Shown here: piece by piece, positions 1 through 44,002 of the stretch
How the letters are laid out: each line of letters starts with the position of its first letter
Position numbering within the stretch: position 1 is the stretch's first letter
Assembly (NCBI GenBank): GCA_965237635.1
Contig: CBDEFX010000002.1
Coordinates: 978,554 to 1,042,553 of the forward strand
DNA: 64,000 nucleotides
Direction of reading: 5' to 3'
DNA from: Dehalococcoidia bacterium
GTDB taxonomy: Bacteria > Chloroflexota > Dehalococcoidia > Lucifugimonadales > CAUZJF01
The notes under the pieces: model-generated
Told to the model about the DNA's origin: nothing
The model's database searches: none
The model's input: the letters and a program-made list of their open reading frames with translations, nothing else
Position numbers and translations under genes: made by a program

Positions 1-53
1 AATCAGGCGTGGCGGTTATTCGTCGCACCCTGTAGAAGAAAAACAAAAAGACG

Positions 54-235
54 CTGAAAAATCTGTTCCATTTTGTTCCATTGTGTCCTGCTCAGCTAGG
101 GACCCTGGTACACTGCGGAACAGCGGGGCAAAGAAATGGGACAGGCCGCTTGGGTCTGTCCCTCGGACCAAGTATAGCACCTATGTTCGCGATTGTCTAG
201 GGGCGGAACTTGGAAGCAACTTCTTGCGCAAAGCC
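54..235 (-). repeat. Dispersed promoter-hairpin-decamer module, copy 1
   Basis: Aligns by eye over about 182 bp with 41311-41493 and, more diverged, with 34871-35019. Shared core AAATGGGACAG...CTGTCCC...AGTATAGCAC-N4-GTTCG. Confidence 0.85.
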
Positions 236-10673: not shown

Positions 10674-10689
10674 AATCTATACAGACGTT

Positions 10690-10790
10690 ACCTCATCCCT
10701 ACGCTGGCATTACCCAGATCAGGTCACGGGGTCGTCCCAACACGTTGGGACCTCTCAGCCTGGCTTCCCAAGCTCCCCCCGGGTATGTAT
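10690..10790 (-). ncRNA. TPP riboswitch
   Basis: Minus strand GGGGAGC..GGCTGAGAGG..GACCC..GACCTGATCTGGGTAATGCCAGCGTAGGGA matches the TPP aptamer core; upstream of thiamine ABC genes. Confidence 0.95.
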
Positions 10791-20776: not shown

Positions 20777-21302
20777 GCGGCGCTCCTTATTAGATTCTCC
20801 TCAGCCCGTAGCAAGCACCGCGTGCGAGTCATGTGTCAATAACAGGAAACGCAGGAAGCGGAACGAGTGCAACTTGGTCTCGGAGTCGACGATATTGTAC
20901 CACGGACGGTCTTGTTTTGGGAATCCCTCGTCCGCCGCATGCGGGAGAGATTATGGACCATCAACCGGGGGACAGCCTCTCTGTCTGCCGGTGTTTGGTT
21001 GTCTGCACGCCTCTGACACTTGTTGGCGCGTTGTCTTCTGCATGGGTCCGGAGCTGGCGCGTTTTCCGGCAGAACGCTTTGAGCTGCTGTTCTTTGACGG
21101 TCGAACAGCGATGGAACCGGCGAGCCGTTTTACGGTCGCTCGCAACCGTTGGGTGGCCGCTCCTCTACGGTCGAAACGGCCAACTGAACCGGTGGGCTTT
21201 ATTCACGGTCTCCCGCTACCGTGACCGAAGCCAAAGGACATGTGACAGCCTCGGCCAACTCAACGATCACGCCGGACGTTTGCCAGCTCAGGACTCCGGA
21301 CC

Positions 21303-21403
21303 CCAGGGTAAAAAGAAACGGACGCCTCGACAAGCTCGTTGCTGACTTGCCGACGGGCCTGTCCCTCACAAACCAGGATAGCACACGTGTTCGGTTTTGT
21401 TAA
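21303..21403 (-). repeat. Dispersed promoter-hairpin module, copy 4 (partial)
   Basis: Minus strand TTAACA-17 bp-TATCCT with CGAAC-ACGT-GTGC in the spacer, then GAGGGACAG...GTCCGTTTCTTTTTACCC. Confidence 0.7.
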
Positions 21404-21694
21404 AGGCCCGCATGACCTCAATATTATGGTTGCTGAAGATGGGAACAATCCCACCACTTTGGCAAAGGGTTCAGGGAACGGGCGTGATTAGGAGTGGCGG
21501 TCGTATGTGGGCAGAGGGCGCACGCTTTGCGCCCCTACGAATCGCACCCTGGGAATAGGGTCCGGCGCACGATATAGGGCTTGTCGGCTGACGTACCCAG
21601 GTTGACTGGCCGCCGAGGTGCGCATAGAATGCTGGCGTCGGCGCTGGTGGGACGGAGCGAGGGCCTCCACATCACGCGTTCCAGGAGGAGAGCG

Positions 21695-32390: not shown

Positions 32391-34769
32391 CTAGATCCCC
32401 AGGGCGCCGAAGCAGGCCGCCATTATGCTGCCGGAGTCGATCTCGTACTCACGGTAGAGCTCGTCGGGGTTGCCTGACTGGCCGAACCTAGTCACGCCCA
32501 GCGGGTAGGTTGCTGTGTTGAGCGCGCCGCCGATCCAGGCCAACGAGTGTGGGTGCCCATCGATGACCGTGACGACGGGGGCGTTGCGCTCGGCGACGGG
32601 TATGACGTCGTCCATGAAGGGCGACGCTCTGGACTGCCCTCTAAGGTTGGCCTGCACGGTCTCCTGGAATCTTCTGTAGAGCGGACCTGGGCCTGTGGCG
32701 TTCACCACGTTCGCGAAGACGCCCTCCTCCATCAGGAGCCGGCTGGCCTCGATGGCCTCGGGGACGACCACCCCGCTGGCAACGATGTGGACCACGTTCG
32801 AGCCGGGACGGTAGCCGGGCTCGCGGCTGCGGTCGACCTGCTTGTACGCGCCGTCGATCACCTGCCGGCGCAGACGCTCGAGGGCCGCCGGGTCTGTGGG
32901 AGGCTTGAACAGGTCCTGGTTGACCCGCATCGTGGTCAGTCTCAGGTACGCGCTCTCCTCGCGAAGGCGGACCTTGTCCAGGGCCGACAGGATGATCCAC
33001 TCGAGCTCCTGGCCGAAGCAGGGCTGGTAGAAGGAGATGTCCGGCAGCTCCACGCCGATAGAGGGCGTCACCAGGGACTGGTGTGAGCCGCCTTCCGGGC
33101 CGAGGGTGACCCCTGATGGGGTCCCGACCACTATGAACCGCGCCCCGGCGTTGACGCTGTAGACGTACGCGTCCAGGCCCCGACGCACGAATGGGTCGTA
33201 GAGCGTGCCGATCGGGAACAGCAGCTCGCCGTTCATCTCATGGGAGAGCCCCAGCTGGCCCAGGCACAGGAACAGGTTGTTCTCCGATATCCCTAGCTCG
33301 ATGTGTTGGCCGCGGTCGGACTCGGTCCATTGCAGGGCCCTGATGCCGTCCTCTTCGGGCATCGACTCGTTCTCTCTTTTACCCCATACGCCGGCCTTGT
33401 TGATCCAACCTCCCAGATTGGTCGAGCTGGCGACGTCCGGGCTCACGGTCACCAGTCTCTCAGCGACGTCGGGAGCGTTGCGCGAGATGTCGGTGAGGAC
33501 GAGGCCGAAGATCTGCTGGGTCGACATCTTGCCCTGGTAGGTGCGGCCGAACCCATGGGGGATGTCCATCTCAGGCGGCGGGACTCGCTGGTCTTTGCTG
33601 AGCTGCAGCCGGTAGCCGGCATCCAGGCATAGCCTTCCAGCCGCGGAGTCGGACGGCAACCTGGACGACATCTCTTCGGTCGAGATGCCAAGGTCGGCCC
33701 TAAACTCCTCCATCTGCTCGCTATTCATGTTTACCGAATGGTTCTGCGCGTCCCCGACCGAGGGCAGCATCCAGCCCTTCAGGGTGTAGGCGAACATTAC
33801 GTTTGGCCCGGTCGTGTCCACCTGGTCGAACGCCTCGGCGAGCACCTCGAAATCGTGTCCACCCAGGTTGTGGAACAAGGCCCTGAGCTCGCTATCGTCC
33901 CATTGGGAGATGAACTGGGCCATGTCGTCCGGCAAGCGGCTGGCGCGCGGGAGCCATTCTCTTAAGGTGGGCCCGTCCACCCGGACCAACCGCTGGTACA
34001 GGTCGTTGGACATCTCGTCGATGCACTCGCGCAGCAGGTCGCCCTTCGGCTCCGCGTAGGCGGCCTGAAGCTTCTTTCCGTACTTGGCGTCGATGACCTT
34101 CCAGCCGTTTGCGCGGAACATCTGTCGCCAGACCTCCACACGGATGCCTGGAATTATTCGGTCGAGGCTCTGGCGGTTCAGGTCGATTATCCACAGGACG
34201 TTCTTGATGTCGGTAAGGGCAGGCTCGGCGATCGCCTCCCAGACGACACCCTCGTCCAGCTCCGCGTCACCGAGGAGGCTGATGTAGCGACGGTCGATCC
34301 CGCTGTCCGGCTGCGTATGGCTGCGGACGTACTCTTCCGTCAGCCATGCGAAGTTGGGGGCCACCGCGCCCAGCCCGACCGAACCGGTCGAAAAGTCGAC
34401 GCCGTCCGGGTCTTTGGTCCGGCTCGGATACGCTTGCAGGCCGTGGAAGCCCCTGAGCGCCTTCAGATACTCGGCGTCGAGGTTCCCGAGGAGGTACTGA
34501 ATGGCATGGAACACAGGCGAGGAGTGAGGCTTGATCGATATCCGGTCTCCGGCCTTCATGAACTCGAAATACAGGTAGGTCAGGATCGTGACGACGGAAG
34601 CACTGGAGGCCTGGTGGCCTCCGACCTTAAGGCCAGTGGGATTGGGGCGGCCGTGGTTGGCGTAGTCCACCATGTAGACGGACAGCCATAGCACGCGCTT
34701 TTGGACCTCGTCGAGTATCTTGTACCGCTCGGTGGCGGCGTCGACGCCAGCTACAACGTCGGTTGCCAT
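32391..34769 (-). CDS. TPP-dependent pyruvate dehydrogenase E1-like (AceE/transketolase-type) enzyme
   Basis: KVGGHQASSAS, YPSRTKDPDGVDFSTGSVGLG, GDAELDEG TPP motif, LGISENN, EGGSHQS. Confidence 0.9.
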   Translation of the reverse strand: MATDVVAGVDAATERYKILDEVQKRVLWLSVYMVDYANHGRPNPTGLKVGGHQASSASVVTILTYLYFEFMKAGDRISIKPHSSPVFHAIQYLLGNLDAEYLKALRGFHGLQAYPSRTKDPDGVDFSTGSVGLGAVAPNFAWLTEEYVRSHTQPDSGIDRRYISLLGDAELDEGVVWEAIAEPALTDIKNVLWIIDLNRQSLDRIIPGIRVEVWRQMFRANGWKVIDAKYGKKLQAAYAEPKGDLLRECIDEMSNDLYQRLVRVDGPTLREWLPRASRLPDDMAQFISQWDDSELRALFHNLGGHDFEVLAEAFDQVDTTGPNVMFAYTLKGWMLPSVGDAQNHSVNMNSEQMEEFRADLGISTEEMSSRLPSDSAAGRLCLDAGYRLQLSKDQRVPPPEMDIPHGFGRTYQGKMSTQQIFGLVLTDISRNAPDVAERLVTVSPDVASSTNLGGWINKAGVWGKRENESMPEEDGIRALQWTESDRGQHIELGISENNLFLCLGQLGLSHEMNGELLFPIGTLYDPFVRRGLDAYVYSVNAGARFIVVGTPSGVTLGPEGGSHQSLVTPSIGVELPDISFYQPCFGQELEWIILSALDKVRLREESAYLRLTTMRVNQDLFKPPTDPAALERLRRQVIDGAYKQVDRSREPGYRPGSNVVHIVASGVVVPEAIEASRLLMEEGVFANVVNATGPGPLYRRFQETVQANLRGQSRASPFMDDVIPVAERNAPVVTVIDGHPHSLAWIGGALNTATYPLGVTRFGQSGNPDELYREYEIDSGSIMAACFGALGI

Positions 34770-34870
34770 ACAGTCCTCCGGAATCGCAGGGCTTCTTAGG
34801 CCGAGAAACGGGGCCCGGCGGGCGCTTCGGAATAGTATAGCACCGGCGCTCGATCAGGTGAGTCGCGACA

Positions 34871-35019
34871 TTTGAAAAAGTGTCTCATTCTGTCTCATTG
34901 TGTCCCATTTAGCTAGGGGGAGGTGGGACACCTCGGGACACTCTGGGCAAAAAAATGGGACAGACTCGGGGGGTCCGTCCCTCATGACAAAGTATAGCAC
35001 ACTTGTTCGGGGACTTCCA
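34871..35019 (-). repeat. Dispersed promoter-hairpin-decamer module, copy 2
   Basis: Decamers GTGTCTCATT/CTGTCTCATT/GTGTCCCATT, AAATGGGACAG hairpin, AGTATAGCAC-ACTT-GTTCG. Confidence 0.8.
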
Positions 35020-35181
35020 GGGTCTACTTGGTCCACTCACGGTCATTCTAAAAGGTCCTGTTTGACATCCCTCAGGGTAATCGGATGTGTGAAGTCCGTT
35101 CGCGGTGAGCGGACTTCGACCTCGCTCAGGACTGGCCGTCGGAGCGCGGGCGAACGAAAAGGGGCACGGCATGCCGTGCCC

Positions 35182-35588: not shown

Positions 35589-36926
35589 GGTGTGTAAACG
35601 ACATCAGGCGGCGACCTTCTCAGCCGTTGATTCAATGGCGATTCCATCCGCATACTGTGCACCGAGATAGACGTCTTCGATCAACTCAGGGGCCTTCAGA
35701 CGCCTGAAGCGCTGTTCGGCGACCATCAACCTTTTCCAGATCACCGCTATCGCCCGATCGACCCTCTTGTAGCGCTTGGCGGCATCGGTCCGAAGCCTGA
35801 GGGCCGCGAAGGGTGATTCTACCGGGTTCGTCGTGCGAAGGTGCCCCCAGTGTTCCTTTGGGAAGTCATAGAAGGTGACCATGCGGTCCCAGTCCCGCTC
35901 CAAGGCCTCTGAGGCCGCCTCGTAGGAATGGTCGCCGCACCACCTGGTGAACACCGTCCTGAGCCGCTCAGCCTCTGTCCGAGTCGGCGCGTAGGGGATA
36001 GTACGCAGCATGAGCTTGGCCTGGTCCTGTTGTCGCTTTGGAAGCTTGGCGAGCACGTTTAGGATCTTGTGGTTCCAGCAGCGTTGCTCGGCCGCCTGCG
36101 GATAGACGTTGCGCAGAGCTCCCCAGATGCCCAGGTGTCCATCTCCAACCACCAGCCTCGGGCAGCTCAAGCCCCGGCGCTTGATGTCCCTGAGCACATC
36201 GGACCAGCTCTCTATGGACTCCCTGTATCCGGGAATCGCGCTCACCACCACCTTCCTTCCGTCGCTCAGGGCCGCCATCACCACCAGGATCGCCGCCTTC
36301 TCCCGCTCAAGACCGGCCTTGACGTAGACTCCATCCACCCACATGTACACCACTTCCAGGTCATCCAGGGGCCTAGCGCGCCATTGGGCAAGCTCATCGT
36401 TCCACTTATCCTTCAACCGGGCTACCGTGCTCGCCGATATCGGTGCCTCTTCTCCCAGCAGTCCCCGCACCGCCAGGTCGAAGTCACCTTCGGAAAGGCC
36501 ATGTAGGTACAACTGGGGGATCAGCTCAGCAACCTTCCTGGTCCTGTTGACGAACAGCGGCAGCAGCCGGCTCTCGAACTCCTCTTCGGTGTTGCGGACT
36601 CGTGGCCTCCTCAGCTGTACCGTTCCCGAACTCAGCGTAAGCCTTCGGGGTTTGCCGTATCCGTTCCTATAGCCTCTCTCGTTGTCCGACTCAGACCTGC
36701 GGGCCGACTTCGCCCTTCCTAGAAACTCCGTCACCTCTTCCTCCAGCAACTCCTGGATCAGCCGCTGGACATGGCCTCGCACCCAATCCTCCAACTGCTC
36801 CCACTCCGGCCTTGACTCCGACCTGCTCTCAGTACTTTCCTTCCTCATGGGCGGTGTATCTCCTCTCTTGGGCCTCGAGCCCGTGTTGTTCAGAGAGAGG
36901 GTACACCGCCTGACCGTTTACACACT
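35589..36926 (-). mobile_element. IS256-family element
   Basis: Inverted ends (G/A)GTGTGTAAACG..TCAGGCGG at 35589 and 36926; no clear target duplication. Confidence 0.85.
35604..36848 (-). CDS. IS256-family transposase
   Basis: YRNGYGKPR, YMWVDGVY, VVGDGHLG, QRCWNHK, LRTTNPVES. Confidence 0.95.
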   Translation of the reverse strand: MRKESTESRSESRPEWEQLEDWVRGHVQRLIQELLEEEVTEFLGRAKSARRSESDNERGYRNGYGKPRRLTLSSGTVQLRRPRVRNTEEEFESRLLPLFVNRTRKVAELIPQLYLHGLSEGDFDLAVRGLLGEEAPISASTVARLKDKWNDELAQWRARPLDDLEVVYMWVDGVYVKAGLEREKAAILVVMAALSDGRKVVVSAIPGYRESIESWSDVLRDIKRRGLSCPRLVVGDGHLGIWGALRNVYPQAAEQRCWNHKILNVLAKLPKRQQDQAKLMLRTIPYAPTRTEAERLRTVFTRWCGDHSYEAASEALERDWDRMVTFYDFPKEHWGHLRTTNPVESPFAALRLRTDAAKRYKRVDRAIAVIWKRLMVAEQRFRRLKAPELIEDVYLGAQYADGIAIESTAEKVAA

Positions 36927-40162: not shown

Positions 40163-41218
40163 ATGACTCAGACTGCGGGTGTTGGCCAGGTCGAGGGGGT
40201 GAAGGCGAAGGCTCTACAGGAGTTGGAATCGGCGACCAACTCAGAGCAGCTTGAGCAGTGGCGGATCAGCTACCTTGGTCGCAGCGGCGTTCTTACGCAG
40301 ATACTGCGAGGTCTGGGCTCCCTGCCCTCTGACGATCGGCGGCTCGTTGGTGCGGCCGCGAATCAGGCCAAGAGCCTTCTCGAAGACCGGCTGGCGGCTC
40401 GAGAAAAAGACCTCAAGGACACTTATCTCTCCGACCAGGTCGAGGCCGAGGCCATCGACGTAACCCTCCCAGGCCGGCCCGCGCCCCGTGGAGGGCTCCA
40501 CCCGACCACCCGCACCGTACGTGAGATCTGCAGCGTGTTTACGTCCATGGGGTTCGATATTGCCGAGGGACCGGAGGTCGAGTGGGACCGCTACAATTTC
40601 GAGATGCTCAACATCCCAAAGCACCACCCCGCTCGCGACATGTGGAGCACCATGTGGATCGACTACACGGACGAGCACGGCGATCGGCCGATGCTGCTGC
40701 GCACCCACACGTCGCCGATGCAGGCCCGCATCATGGAGGGCACCAGGCCTCCGGTCCGAGTCGTGGTGCCGGGCAAGTGCTACCGGTACGAGGCTACGGA
40801 CGCCACCCACGAGTGGCACCTGTTCCAGGTAGAGGGTCTGGCGGTGGACAAGGGGATCACCTTCTCGGACCTCAAGGGGACCGTGTACGAGTTCGCCAGA
40901 CGTATGTTCGGCGAGGAGCGCCGCCTGCGCTTCCGCTGCGACTTCTTTCCGTTCGTGGAGCCGGGAGTCGACATTTCAATGGACTGCTTCAACTGCAACG
41001 GCGAAGGCTGTTCAGTCTGCAGCGGCACCGGGTGGATAGAGATCGCAGGAGCGGGGATGGTGCATCCACGAGTACTGGAAAGCGTAGGCTACGACCCCCA
41101 GACCTACACCGGATTCGCCTTCGGCTTCGGGGTGGAGCGGATAGCCATGCTCAAATACGACATCGAGGACATACGCCTTTTCTACGCGAACGACCTGCGG
41201 TTCCTGAGGCAATTGTAA
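40163..41218 (+). CDS. pheS: Phenylalanine--tRNA ligase alpha subunit
   Basis: GGLHPT, NFEMLNIPKHHPARDM, LLRTHTSPMQ, FPFVEPG, GAGMVHP, FAFGFGVERIAM. Confidence 0.98.
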   Translation: MTQTAGVGQVEGVKAKALQELESATNSEQLEQWRISYLGRSGVLTQILRGLGSLPSDDRRLVGAAANQAKSLLEDRLAAREKDLKDTYLSDQVEAEAIDVTLPGRPAPRGGLHPTTRTVREICSVFTSMGFDIAEGPEVEWDRYNFEMLNIPKHHPARDMWSTMWIDYTDEHGDRPMLLRTHTSPMQARIMEGTRPPVRVVVPGKCYRYEATDATHEWHLFQVEGLAVDKGITFSDLKGTVYEFARRMFGEERRLRFRCDFFPFVEPGVDISMDCFNCNGEGCSVCSGTGWIEIAGAGMVHPRVLESVGYDPQTYTGFAFGFGVERIAMLKYDIEDIRLFYANDLRFLRQL

Positions 41219-41310
41219 CTGTCAGTCGGGCTAGCCTCCCTCGATACGTCCCCCCGATGCGGCATCGGGGTCGCATCGGGACTACTCGGGATGAACGGGT
41301 TGGTAAAGCT

Positions 41311-41493
41311 CTGAAAAATGTGTTTCATTTTGTTGCATTGTGTACCACTCAGCTATGGGATTCCGGTACACCGCGGAACATCCGGGCAAAGAAATGGGAC
41401 AGGCCGCTTGGGTCTGTCCCTAACAGCTAGTATAGCACCTATGTTCGCCATTGTCGAGGGCTGAGGACTTGAAGCGACTTCTTGTGCAGAGCC
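41311..41493 (-). repeat. Dispersed promoter-hairpin-decamer module, copy 3 (between pheS and pheT)
   Basis: Colinear with 54-235; GGGCAAAGAAATGGGACAGGCCGCTTGGGTCTGTCCCT and AGTATAGCACCTATGTTCGC are identical. Confidence 0.88.
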
Positions 41494-41545
41494 GCATCAG
41501 GGCGTATCGACGGAGATGATCGATTCACGATTATTTGAGGCCTAA

Positions 41546-44002
41546 ATGCTAGTCCCTCTATCCTGGCTGAAAAAGTATGTACCCGTATCCCTTCCTGCCA
41601 AAGAGCTGGCCCACCGCTTGACGATGGCCGGCACCGAGGTCGGCTCCATCAACGAGACCGGTGCGACCTGGGACCGGGACAAGGTTCTCGTTGGGCGCGT
41701 CCTGAGGGTGGACAAGCACCCGAACGCCGACCGCTTGACCCTACCTGCCGTCGATCTGGGAGACGGCGAGACTGTGTCCGTGGTTTGCGGTGCCCCCAAC
41801 GTCGCTGCAGGTCAGAAGATAGCCTTCGCCCGGGAGGGTGCGCGGCTCTTCAGCACCCGCTCCGGCAAGGTGGAGAAGTTGAAGGCGGCCAAGATCAGGG
41901 GCGTGTTGTCGGCGGGCATGGTCTGCTCGGAGCTCGAGCTGGGCTTAGGCGAGGGTCACGAGGGGATACTGGTGCTCGACGAGAGCGCGCCTGTCGGGGC
42001 GCCTCTGGCTGACTACCTGGGGGACGCCATTCTAGATATCGAGGTCACTCCCAATAGGCCCGACTGTCTGTCCATCCTGGGCGTCGCCCGCGAGGTCGCC
42101 GCGCTCACGGGCGAGAAGGTCACAGAGCCCGACTTCGGCTATGTCGAGGATGGAGCTCCCATAGACGAGCAGGCGCAGGTCGAGATTGCCGACCCGAACC
42201 TATGCTACCGCTACTCCGCGAGCCTTGTGACGGACGTGACGGTAGGGCCGTCGCTAGGCTGGCTCCAGGACGCGCTAAACAAGGCGGGGCAGCGGCCGAT
42301 CAACAACATAGTGGACGTGACCAACTACGCGATGTTGGAGTACGGCCAGCCTCTTCACGCCTTCGACCTGGACACCGTTGGTGACCGGACCATCGTCGTG
42401 AGGGCGGCCCGCCCCGGCGAGAAGCTGGCGATGCTCGACGACGAGACGCGTAGGCTCGATCCTCCGATGCTGACAATCGCCGACGCCACCCGCCCGGTCG
42501 CGCTGGCGGGCGTAATGGGTGGCTTAGACACCGGGGTGCGCGAAGGTACGACGTCCATCCTGCTGGAGTCGGCCAACTTCGATGCCGTGAACACGCGGCG
42601 CACAGCGGCCGCGCTTAGGCTGAGCACCGAGGCATCGTACAGGTTTGAACGCGGGATCAGGGCGGAGCTCGCACCTCGTGCCCTCAGACGCGCGACGAAG
42701 CTCATTCTCGAAGTTGCGGGCGGGTCGGCGGCCCAGGGGATCATCGACGTATATCCTGGGGAAGAAGAGCCGCCCTCGGTCAAGATTTCCGGCAGCCGGC
42801 TCAAGCAAGTCCTCGGTGTCGAATTCCCTATGGAGCAAGTGAGGAACACGCTTGAGTCTCTTGGTTTCGAGACTTCCGACTCGCCTGACGGGAGTGTGCC
42901 CGAAAAGGCGCAAGGTGACCCGTTCCTGTGGGCGAAAACACCCTACTGGCGCTCTGACATCGCAATAGAGGACGACCTCGTGGAGGAGGTGGCGCGAATC
43001 GTCGGCTATGACGAGATTCCCACATCTGCGCTGGCCACGCCGATTCCCCACCATCAGCCTCGGCCTGAACGAGAGCTGAGGGAGAGGATCAGGGACATCC
43101 TTGCCACCTCGGGCATGCAGGACGTCATATCCTACCCCTTGACTGATCGCCAGACTCTCGACATGGTCGGTGCCTTGCCCGACGCTCGTGAGCCCCTTAA
43201 GGTCGCCAACCCGATGAGCAGCGAGATGCAAGTCCTCAGGACCAGCCTGCGTGGAAGCCTGCTCAAGACTCTCGCCTCCAATCGTCGGGTCTCTCAGGGC
43301 GAGGGCATCAGAATCTTCGAGGTTGGACGTATATACCTGCCAAAGGAGGAGGCCAAGGAGCGAGACCTCCCTGACGAAAAGGAAGTCGTGGTCGGCGTGT
43401 TGTCCGGACCACGAACGACGACATCATGGCTGGGCGTCCAGGGCAACATGGACTTCTTTGACGCCAAGGGCCACCTGGAGCTGTTGTTCCCCCAGCTGGG
43501 CATAGACGTCACATTCGAGCCCTACAGCGACCCTGCGATGCATCCTGGCAAGACGGCCCGGTTGGTATGTGAAGGGCGCGCGATTGGAGTAGTCGGCGAG
43601 CTACACCCTAGGGTGCTCGAAAGATTCGACCTCGAAGGAAGCCCGGCCGCCATGTTCGAGATCGATCTGGAGTCGCTGTATGATGCGGCGCCGGAATATG
43701 CTGCCCGATACGCAACCACCAGTCGGTTCCCGGAGTCTGAGCGGGACCTCGCGCTTATCGTTGACGTGACGGTCTCATCTGCCGCTATCCAGTCGATTAT
43801 CGATCGCCACGACCTGGTGGTGCGCAGTACTCCATTCGATGTATATCAGGGGCAGGAGATACCGGCCGGCAAAAAGTCGATCGCCTACAGGACGGTGTTC
43901 CAGTCGTCGGTGGCTACACTCACCACCGAGGAGATTGACCGTGCCCAGGGCGATATCCTACGGCAGCTTCAACGAGAGGTTGGGGCGGAGCTTCGGGGAT
44001 GA
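41546..44002 (+). CDS. pheT: Phenylalanine--tRNA ligase beta subunit
   Basis: HPNADRL, VVCGAPN, EVTPNRPDCLS, INNIVDVTNY, SYRFERG, IEDDLVEEVARIVGY, ERDLA. Confidence 0.98.
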   Translation: MLVPLSWLKKYVPVSLPAKELAHRLTMAGTEVGSINETGATWDRDKVLVGRVLRVDKHPNADRLTLPAVDLGDGETVSVVCGAPNVAAGQKIAFAREGARLFSTRSGKVEKLKAAKIRGVLSAGMVCSELELGLGEGHEGILVLDESAPVGAPLADYLGDAILDIEVTPNRPDCLSILGVAREVAALTGEKVTEPDFGYVEDGAPIDEQAQVEIADPNLCYRYSASLVTDVTVGPSLGWLQDALNKAGQRPINNIVDVTNYAMLEYGQPLHAFDLDTVGDRTIVVRAARPGEKLAMLDDETRRLDPPMLTIADATRPVALAGVMGGLDTGVREGTTSILLESANFDAVNTRRTAAALRLSTEASYRFERGIRAELAPRALRRATKLILEVAGGSAAQGIIDVYPGEEEPPSVKISGSRLKQVLGVEFPMEQVRNTLESLGFETSDSPDGSVPEKAQGDPFLWAKTPYWRSDIAIEDDLVEEVARIVGYDEIPTSALATPIPHHQPRPERELRERIRDILATSGMQDVISYPLTDRQTLDMVGALPDAREPLKVANPMSSEMQVLRTSLRGSLLKTLASNRRVSQGEGIRIFEVGRIYLPKEEAKERDLPDEKEVVVGVLSGPRTTTSWLGVQGNMDFFDAKGHLELLFPQLGIDVTFEPYSDPAMHPGKTARLVCEGRAIGVVGELHPRVLERFDLEGSPAAMFEIDLESLYDAAPEYAARYATTSRFPESERDLALIVDVTVSSAAIQSIIDRHDLVVRSTPFDVYQGQEIPAGKKSIAYRTVFQSSVATLTTEEIDRAQGDILRQLQREVGAELRG

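Follow-up and report, generated by a model that had tools for sequence, protein, structure and literature searches.

Several described systems place arrays of short binding sites at or near the gene of the protein that binds them. In the lambda cosB site, which is recognised by gpNu1, inverted and direct sites are mixed just upstream of Nu1. The 11-bp parC repeats bound by ParR in plasmid R1 and the heptads bound by omega in pSM19035 are occupied cooperatively, and both proteins autoregulate at their own promoter. Ends carrying multiple binding sites are known for the mobile elements Tn7, Mu and IS21. In the pac region of phage SPP1, three sets of direct repeats span the promoters and the start of the small-terminase gene (PMC4737164). 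Small terminases form rings in which the helix-turn-helix (HTH) motifs lie about one DNA turn apart (PMC4737164). Greive et al. reported that the HTH domain of the SF6 protein binds pac DNA with little sequence specificity (PMC4737164), so that docking at specific sequences cannot be taken for granted with this fold. The protein 2AO9 is counted among the small terminases and forms rings of 8-12 subunits with the HTH domains outside (PMC11331095). DNA recognition by small terminases is still debated, both as to wrapping versus threading and as to specific versus non-specific binding (PMC11331095).

The locus described here lies in the window, i.e., the whole stretch of 64,000 nucleotides that was analysed. 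It carries phased decamers within a dispersed module, and the gene from which this module derives has now been identified. The anatomy of the module, its copy census, the arrays across the protein family and the carriage of a subset of copies by miniature elements (MITEs) are described below. The decamers are probably a DNA-binding array of a small-terminase-like HTH protein, placed across the beginning of the gene that encodes it.

The module is a repeat of about 155 nt, for which an iterated nhmmer search returned 57 matches in the 4.43-Mb genome of two contigs (C1 and C2), 43 of them full length. Four copies fall in the window, at 34870-35023 (copy 1), 49-205 (copy 2), 41305-41463 (copy 3) and, in degenerate form, 21291-21406. 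The minus strand of the window copies is the promoter, leader and first codons of a gene. In gene orientation, a sigma-70-like promoter (TCGACA-17-TGcTATACT) is followed by a leader hairpin with a U-run after it, two inverted GGNACA sites set 10 bp apart downstream of the hairpin, an AGCTA centre and the decamers. The hairpin (GGGACAGaCC...GGcCTGTCCC, then ATTTCTTTG) is terminator-like in copy 1 by a terminator scan, and RNAalifold keeps seven of its pairs in 41-43 of the 43 copies. The AGCTA centre is the remnant of a conserved (C)AGCTAGGAG ribosome-binding region, which precedes the start codon at the homologue loci L024, L028, L032, L045, L048 and L050. The middle decamer of the three holds the ATG, and the open reading frame begins MEQNGT.

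Among the best-kept parts of the module are a GAACA box in the promoter spacer and a GTGCTA that follows 3-4 bases on. The box is present in all copies (window 35004-35008, 185-189 and 41443-41447). It also occurs upstream of homologues with quite different repeat words, and it resembles a half-site of the Cheo-box (LexA), the second half of which overlaps the TG-extended -10. In 13 of the 43 full copies (e.g., C1:1459450, C1:1432080 and C2:706257), the loop of the leader hairpin holds an insert of about 21 nt, CTCGGCAGCTCAGCGCAGGCGG. A like insert in the hairpin loop is seen in the intact cassette of a relative (L064:4880-4960). The inserts leave the stem untouched.

Copy 1 is a solo copy on the minus strand (34870..35023; nhmmer match C2:1013423-1013576, supported by the copy alignment). 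It contains a promoter remnant, the leader hairpin, the site array and a truncated reading frame, and it is directed at an AceE-like gene starting at 34769. Its direct (F) sites are three tandem decamers, AATGGGACAC, AATGAGACAG and AATGAGACAC, at 34880..34909 on the minus strand; they were found by reading and by Tandem Repeats Finder, which reports period 10 and 2.9 copies at 34881-34909. By homology to the MEQNGT start of the intact gene, the ATG at 34898..34896 matches the true start codon, and it opens the truncated frame MRQNETLFQMSRLT followed by a stop. The centre occupies 34910..34919 on the minus strand, with AGCTA itself at 34911-34915. The inverted sites, which are R sites in gene orientation, lie on the plus strand at 34925..34949 and comprise two GGGACA words (34925, 34935) and one degenerate GGGCA (34945) in 10-bp spacing; a further GGGACA at 34957 brings the steps to 10, 10 and 12. 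The leader hairpin GGGACGGAC-loop-GTCTGTCCC, then ATTTTTTTGC, spans 34947..34981 on the minus strand and appears terminator-like by terminator scan, RNA folding and RNAalifold; its arms likewise match the GGGACA word. The promoter remnant at 34991..35019 on the minus strand comprises a -10 TATACT at 34996..34991 preceded by TGc, the GAACA box and a degenerate -35 TGGAAG at 35019..35014. The promoter scan found no full promoter in copy 1.

The other copies in the window are also on the minus strand. Copy 2 (49..205) lies within an IS256-type MITE and has its decamers at 63-92, its hairpin at 138-162 and a predicted promoter with a -10 at 176..171 and a -35 TAGACA at 199..194. The MITE is 248 bp long; its promoter-side inverted repeat, GGCTTTGCGCAAGAA, is at 221..235 on the minus strand, the partner repeat begins 13 bp before the window, and the target duplication matches at only 4 of 9 positions. 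Copy 3 (41305..41463) sits between pheS (stop at 41218) and pheT (start at 41546), with decamers at 41320-41349. Its predicted promoter, TCGACA-17-TATACT with TG at 41457..41429, scores 10/12 with TG in the promoter scan and is antisense into pheS. A single MITE-type inverted repeat, GGCTCTGCACAAGAA, lies at 41479..41493 on the minus strand. It is upstream of copy 3, 30 bp from its promoter end, and no partner was found for it. The degenerate fourth copy (21291..21406; nhmmer match C2:999844-999959, model positions 62-156) has the promoter end and one hairpin arm left and is without a decamer array.

The earlier note had placed phased decamer sets with inverted sites in copies 1-3, and direct reading of the letters agrees with it in all three. 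On the plus strand the sets are gtgtctcatt ctgtctcatt gtgtcccatt at 34880-34909, ctgttccatt ttgttccatt gtgtcctgct at 63-92 and gtgtttcatt ttgttgcatt gtgtaccact at 41320-41349, and copies 2 and 3 share the overall layout of copy 1. The word in gene orientation is AATGGAACAG, with the general form AATGGNACA(G/C) at 10-bp steps. When up to one mismatch is allowed, AAATGGGACAG occurs five times in the window against 0.76 expected, and none of 100 shuffles attains five. Loss of phasing in further copies had been named as a point against the array; the phasing is fixed in 43/43 full-length copies. Counted from the -10 region in gene orientation, the positions F16, R35, R56, R66, F89, F99 and F109 are practically invariant, and sites shift only where the hairpin loop holds an insert.

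An alternative is that the repeats act as RNA, either by long-range pairing of a decamer with the AAUGGGACA arm or as an antiterminator against the leader hairpin. On the plus (antisense) strand, RNAalifold pairs the first decamer with AAUGGGACA over 9 bp, with pair types CG:26, UA:11 and UG:5 that are canonical in 42/43 copies; the fold of copy 1 has a z-score of -3.7, and the leader hairpin is well conserved. However, only the hairpin is predicted in the sense orientation, in which the long-range helix would contain A-C mismatches in 18 copies, and all three decamers vary along with the partner, a pattern that pairing to a single partner leaves unexplained. Because the GAGACA copies have further derived characters in common, the covariation traces back to a single clade. 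The hairpin arm lacks complementarity to the local repeat word in other genomes, and the predicted folds vary between copies. A function of the repeats as RNA is thus judged very unlikely. No Rfam family matched the module, either in a scan of the window at gathering thresholds or in a permissive scan of copy 3. A structured non-coding RNA family in the repeat region was rejected as well: support extends to the sense-strand leader hairpin only, and other genomes do not preserve the antisense helix. Elsewhere in the window, a TPP riboswitch was detected at 10679-10789 on the minus strand (68.5 bits versus a gathering score of 54.3).

The decamers also carry coding information. The earlier note took the short MEQNGT/MRQNET frames for a by-product of the 10-bp period and held that conserved coding would speak against an array. 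Such frames do exist and stop early in the solo copies, but the decamers encode the first six residues, M-E-Q-N-G-T, of a real protein. A pair of decamers set 10 bp apart falls into two reading frames, and residue 5 should therefore be the amino acid encoded by G together with the first two bases of codon 2. The pairs of residues 2 and 5 predicted in this way are E/G, R/E, K/E, Q/A, H/A, L/V and T/D. This frame-shift rule is satisfied in 60/86 N-termini; among unique N-termini it holds in 24/44 against 12.8 expected, and 0/5000 shuffles attain 24. Since codon 2 determines residue 5 through the 10-bp shift, the DNA repeat dictates the peptide and not the reverse, so that the coding objection stands only in the part that the decamers code. 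The decamer word also recurs, inverted, in non-coding DNA.

Genome-wide, a single copy of the module runs on into a whole gene, C1:319156..318746, which encodes 137 aa. This gene was first indicated by weak matches in other genomes of the family, in which the opposite-strand reading enters a real open reading frame directly. The remaining copies break off at codons 7-9 (...ACACATTTTTCAG), a few of them only around codon 22-24, and the point at which they leave the gene is often the site of other inserted repeats. The best PHROG matches of the 137-aa protein are terminase-small-subunit families (E 3e-7 and 6e-7), and its score against Pfam PF13022 is 24.8 bits, under the cut-off of 27.9. An AlphaFold2 model built from a 30-sequence alignment (pLDDT 85) predicts a three-helix HTH at residues 17-51 and then two long helices. 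The top Foldseek match of the model is 2ao9, the phBC6A51 phage protein (probability 1.0, E 0.02), and next come the Sf6 and NV1 small terminases (E about 1-2, probability 0.35-0.47), with E-values similar to those of TetR- and LysR-family regulators. Among viral proteins, many Foldseek matches are labelled terminase small subunit or homeodomain phBC6A51-type. A sequence search of the PDB gave no relevant match, and PADLOC gave a sub-threshold mad1 match only (E 0.026). Judged by its predicted structure, the protein resembles an HTH protein with a small-terminase-like fold. The linked HTH or terminase-like gene that the earlier note proposed to look for is thus present, as the module is the 5' region of that gene.

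In relatives, a partner gene for an all-helical protein of 94-123 aa lies just downstream, usually with a 4-nt overlap. The partner protein has no family in PADLOC, PHROGs or Pfam (weakest E 0.0025, to an unknown-function family); its model is predicted to be all-helical (pLDDT 80), and the structural search was without a match. In the present genome only the first ~12 codons of the partner gene survive (..LRTLERGLARE..), within the stretch C1:318150-318745 downstream of the intact HTH gene. It is broken by a REP between the two genes and by a MITE with GGCTTGCAC-type ends after the remnant.

Homologues of the HTH protein occur in 32/151 genomes of the order, often several per genome. The databases hold about 80, mostly of 125-160 aa and all unnamed or called "hypothetical protein". 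Arrays at 46 non-redundant homologue loci were scored as chains of one 6-mer at 10-11-bp steps. At least three chained sites were found at 37 loci, at least four at 16 and at least five at 12, with a maximum of nine, whereas shuffled sequences gave chains of 3-4 at most. The longest chains are the nine tandem 11-mers of L023, followed by eight sites in L046 and L047 and seven in L024 and L036; at about one fifth of the loci the array is not above chance. The repeat word varies by locus (GGAACA, GAGACA, GCGACA, GTGACA, TGGACA, GGCACA), and the layout is constant, with direct copies at -8/+2/+12 around the ATG and inverted ones upstream. Arrays are also kept upstream of single-copy HTH genes in genomes without amplification. 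The comparison of own-word with other-word counts upstream of homologues is only weakly significant (p = 0.02). The residue preceding the recognition helix tends to vary with the word, with IGRTT at every GGAACA locus, a trend that may reflect relatedness, by which it is confounded.

Because homologues nearly always carry arrays at their start, with a word that differs between homologues, the array is taken to be the protein's own site. This link between protein and site is drawn from association and from the change of word with homologue, which are confounded by phylogeny. A phased array of the same type with different words at homologues in other genera likewise favours the cooperative protein landing pad that the earlier note had suggested. 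By analogy, the array is best read as an autoregulatory, SPP1-pac-like nucleoprotein site; we infer ring formation, DNA wrapping, autoregulation and the binding of protein to site. The HTH protein would assemble into a ring, as phage small terminases do, in which the HTH domains are spaced by about one DNA turn. With such spacing, several subunits could dock on one DNA face and bend or wrap the DNA. The bound ring would cover the stretch from the leader terminator to the start codon and thereby set the expression of its own gene.

The likeness to phage small terminases also suggests a true packaging signal (pac/cos-like) for the terminase of a helper phage or gene-transfer agent, with the dispersed copies as packaging starts. 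This has only a slight chance of being correct. The fold and the PHROG matches agree with it, as does a layout like that of SPP1 pac, with repeats spanning the promoters and the start of the terS gene. A weak match to a protein of a Streptococcus satellite phage, with an overlapping small gene after it, points the same way. However, the neighbours of the HTH-gene cassettes in the contexts examined are housekeeping or IS genes; no large terminase, portal, capsid or phage-type integrase gene was found beside these cassettes, which sit stably next to housekeeping genes, and the solo copies drift neutrally. The sole TerL of the genome is a 359-aa Terminase_6N frame between IS copies, elsewhere on C1 in a decayed prophage. 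That prophage remnant (C1:1341094-1351126) holds a tyrosine-integrase-like gene, the Terminase_6N frame and a VRR-NUC-like gene. The satellite-phage match is L072 (MK448497.1 11297-11903), a hypothetical protein of Streptococcus satellite phage Javan437, with E 0.01 and 27% identity to the HTH protein. It is the only match of the HTH protein in the phage collection, and an overlapping small ORF follows it. This match is a weak lead toward satellite packaging modules.

A broader proposal is that the HTH protein and its helical partner form an undescribed chromosomal system of SAR202/Dehalococcoidia, derived from a phage packaging-recognition module, in which the ring protein would wrap the array that overlies its start codon, with the arrays, including the 56 dispersed ones, as genome-wide landing pads. 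This too is improbable. If it were true, the arrays might serve as starts for packaging into, or transfer by, helper particles, as satellite pac sites do; alternatively, they might be organising or decoy sites that set the protein level.

The genome now has one intact gene (C1:319156..318746) with a broken partner gene, and the other 56 matches (42 full-length modules) retain only the 5' region of the gene. Full-length modules span the promoter to codons 7-24, and partial ones contain less. Under the preferred reading, that of a self-binding array over the gene start, the dispersed modules would have arisen from pseudogene fragments, at least some of them carried inside IS256-derived MITEs, and would now drift as relics with a promoter and possible decoy sites.

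The carrier is visible in the genome. A 1.5-kb IS256-family element is abundant, with about 50 related copies, and the window holds an IS256-family (Transposase_mut) transposase gene at 35604-36848 on the minus strand (E 8e-58). Many MITEs of 130-170 bp carry the inverted repeat of this element, GGCTTTGCACAAGAA, and 9-bp target duplications, which the 1.5-kb IS itself also shows. Ten module copies lie between two MITE repeats, and in 5/10 of these the duplication matches at 7-9 of 9 positions; it is complete (9/9), for example, at C1:602629-602874 (GATTGACAC) and at the C2:622896 copy (CTCGAAGGG). One MITE repeat accompanies 16/57 copies, and 31/57 have none within 900 bp; in the window, copy 2 is inside a MITE, copy 3 has one repeat and copy 1 has none. 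The distance from the module to the GGCTTTGCACAAGAA repeats in the mobile copies is 29-31 bp on the promoter side and 62-370 bp on the opposite side. Carriage by an IS256-derived MITE is thus established for a subset of module copies only. One IS copy splits a module at C2:1374805/1376282.

These observations bear on the claim of the earlier note that the module is a mobile-element end, i.e., that the array is an accessory site for a transposase or recombinase. The 57 dispersed copies, some with flanking target duplications, would fit such a role. However, the real ends are the GGCTTTGCACAAGAA IS256-type repeats, and the 9-bp duplications flank these repeats, outside the module. The IS256-family MITEs and IS copies are without decamers, and the array is internal and confined to one side; it is also kept in front of single-copy HTH genes in genomes without any amplification. 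It is extremely unlikely that the array marks a mobile-element end, and no recombinase, transposase or replication initiator is linked to it. A transposon end of the Tn7, Mu or IS21 type was rejected, since the repeats are not at both termini and the linked gene encodes the 137-aa HTH protein and no transposase.

The dispersed copies might alternatively be working parts of the host: the one HTH protein would bind all 57 arrays, which would form a regulon of portable, repressible promoters or serve to organise the chromosome. Within the repeat family, the columns of the promoter, the hairpin and the site cores are the best conserved. In addition, 24 copies lie at most 400 bp upstream of a co-directional gene, as copy 1 does before the AceE-like gene. 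However, the modules show no preferred orientation towards the genes downstream (27 co-directional, 23 opposed), several copies, including copy 1, have degenerate -35 boxes, and private mutations strike motif columns equally (37 in 74 motif columns versus 41 in 73 others, p = 0.34). The amplification is also specific to this genus, as five genomes of the same family have 0-2 module matches each. A host function of the dispersed copies is therefore considered unlikely. Two narrower proposals are unsupported by the same counts: a promoter role of solo copies for their neighbours, given the 27 versus 23 orientations, and selection on solo copies, given that private mutations are not depleted in motif columns. 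Differences shared among copies are depleted in the promoter, hairpin and site columns (1.4-5.7 non-consensus letters per column versus 8.7 elsewhere). This depletion is read as constraint on the source gene, with the dispersed copies apparently drifting neutrally, and most solo copies look like inert relics.

Other short repeat families crowd the genome (GGGCGCACGCCATGCGCCCCTAC; GGGCGGGTTTGAAACCCGCCCCTAC; CCTCGATACGTCCCGATGCGGCATCGGG...GGGATGAACGGGGTTGG), for example at 41238-41290 and in many module flanks. The CCTCGATACGTCCCGATGCGGCATCGGG...GGGATGAACGGGGTTGG family has been inserted repeatedly straight after the ...TTTTTCAG of the module, in the former coding region. In related metagenome contigs of at least 85% likeness that cover window 41211-41603, pheS is joined to pheT and 388-407 bases are skipped, which hints that the REP and the module in the pheS-pheT gap are an insertion in this lineage. 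None of the sequencing runs that contain the locus is labelled as RNA; they resemble metagenome assemblies that break at the repeats, and they gave no transcript ends.

Several points give the locus wider interest. An array that spells the first six residues of a protein makes two of those residues co-vary through a frame shift. Short MEQNGT-type reading frames can be flagged as gene fragments for annotation, and a conspicuous repeat family of SAR202 is explained. An IS256-type MITE can take up the promoter and operator of a gene and scatter them, which leaves about 50 orphan promoters and potential decoy sites dispersed through the genome. If the assignment of the array to the HTH protein holds, this would be a clean natural case of a small-terminase-fold protein that reads sharp words at one-turn spacing, and the family supplies many protein-site pairs with different words.

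The locus can be compared with each of the known types of array and dispersed repeat. Correia elements, ERIC sequences and IS256-derived MITEs are likewise intergenic repeats of ~150-250 bp with an outward promoter, whereas the cargo here is the recognisable front of a gene with its operator array. As in IS256-derived MITEs, a subset of copies has inverted repeats identical to those of the resident IS and 9-bp target duplications, although more than half of the copies are without MITE ends. The iterons of P1 RepA and pPS10 are direct repeats that also overlap the promoter of the gene of the binding protein; they are, however, 17-22 bp long, spaced at about 22 bp, located at an origin and bound by Rep, none of which applies here. 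An iteron array of a replicon was rejected on the unit of 10-11 bp and on a linked protein without a Rep-like match. The ParR-parC and omega systems share 5-10 short, helically phased repeats in direct and inverted orientation. Their proteins are of the ribbon-helix-helix type and work with a partition ATPase, whereas the protein here is HTH and terminase-like with no linked ATPase, and its array lies downstream of the promoter, over the start codon. Relative to SPP1 pac, there are no large-terminase or virion genes near the cassettes examined; the gene is chromosomal, paired with a gene for a small helical protein and multi-copy in SAR202 genomes, and the repeats are sharply defined words with an overlap onto the start codon. 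As in the pac sites of SPP1 and SF6 with their G1P proteins, an N-terminal HTH is combined with putative helical oligomerisation, and the one-turn spacing of the HTH motifs fits the 10-bp phasing (PMC4737164; PMC11331095). The pac/cos pattern of repeats that span the promoter and start of terS is likewise found at this locus, where the array runs from the leader to codon 6.
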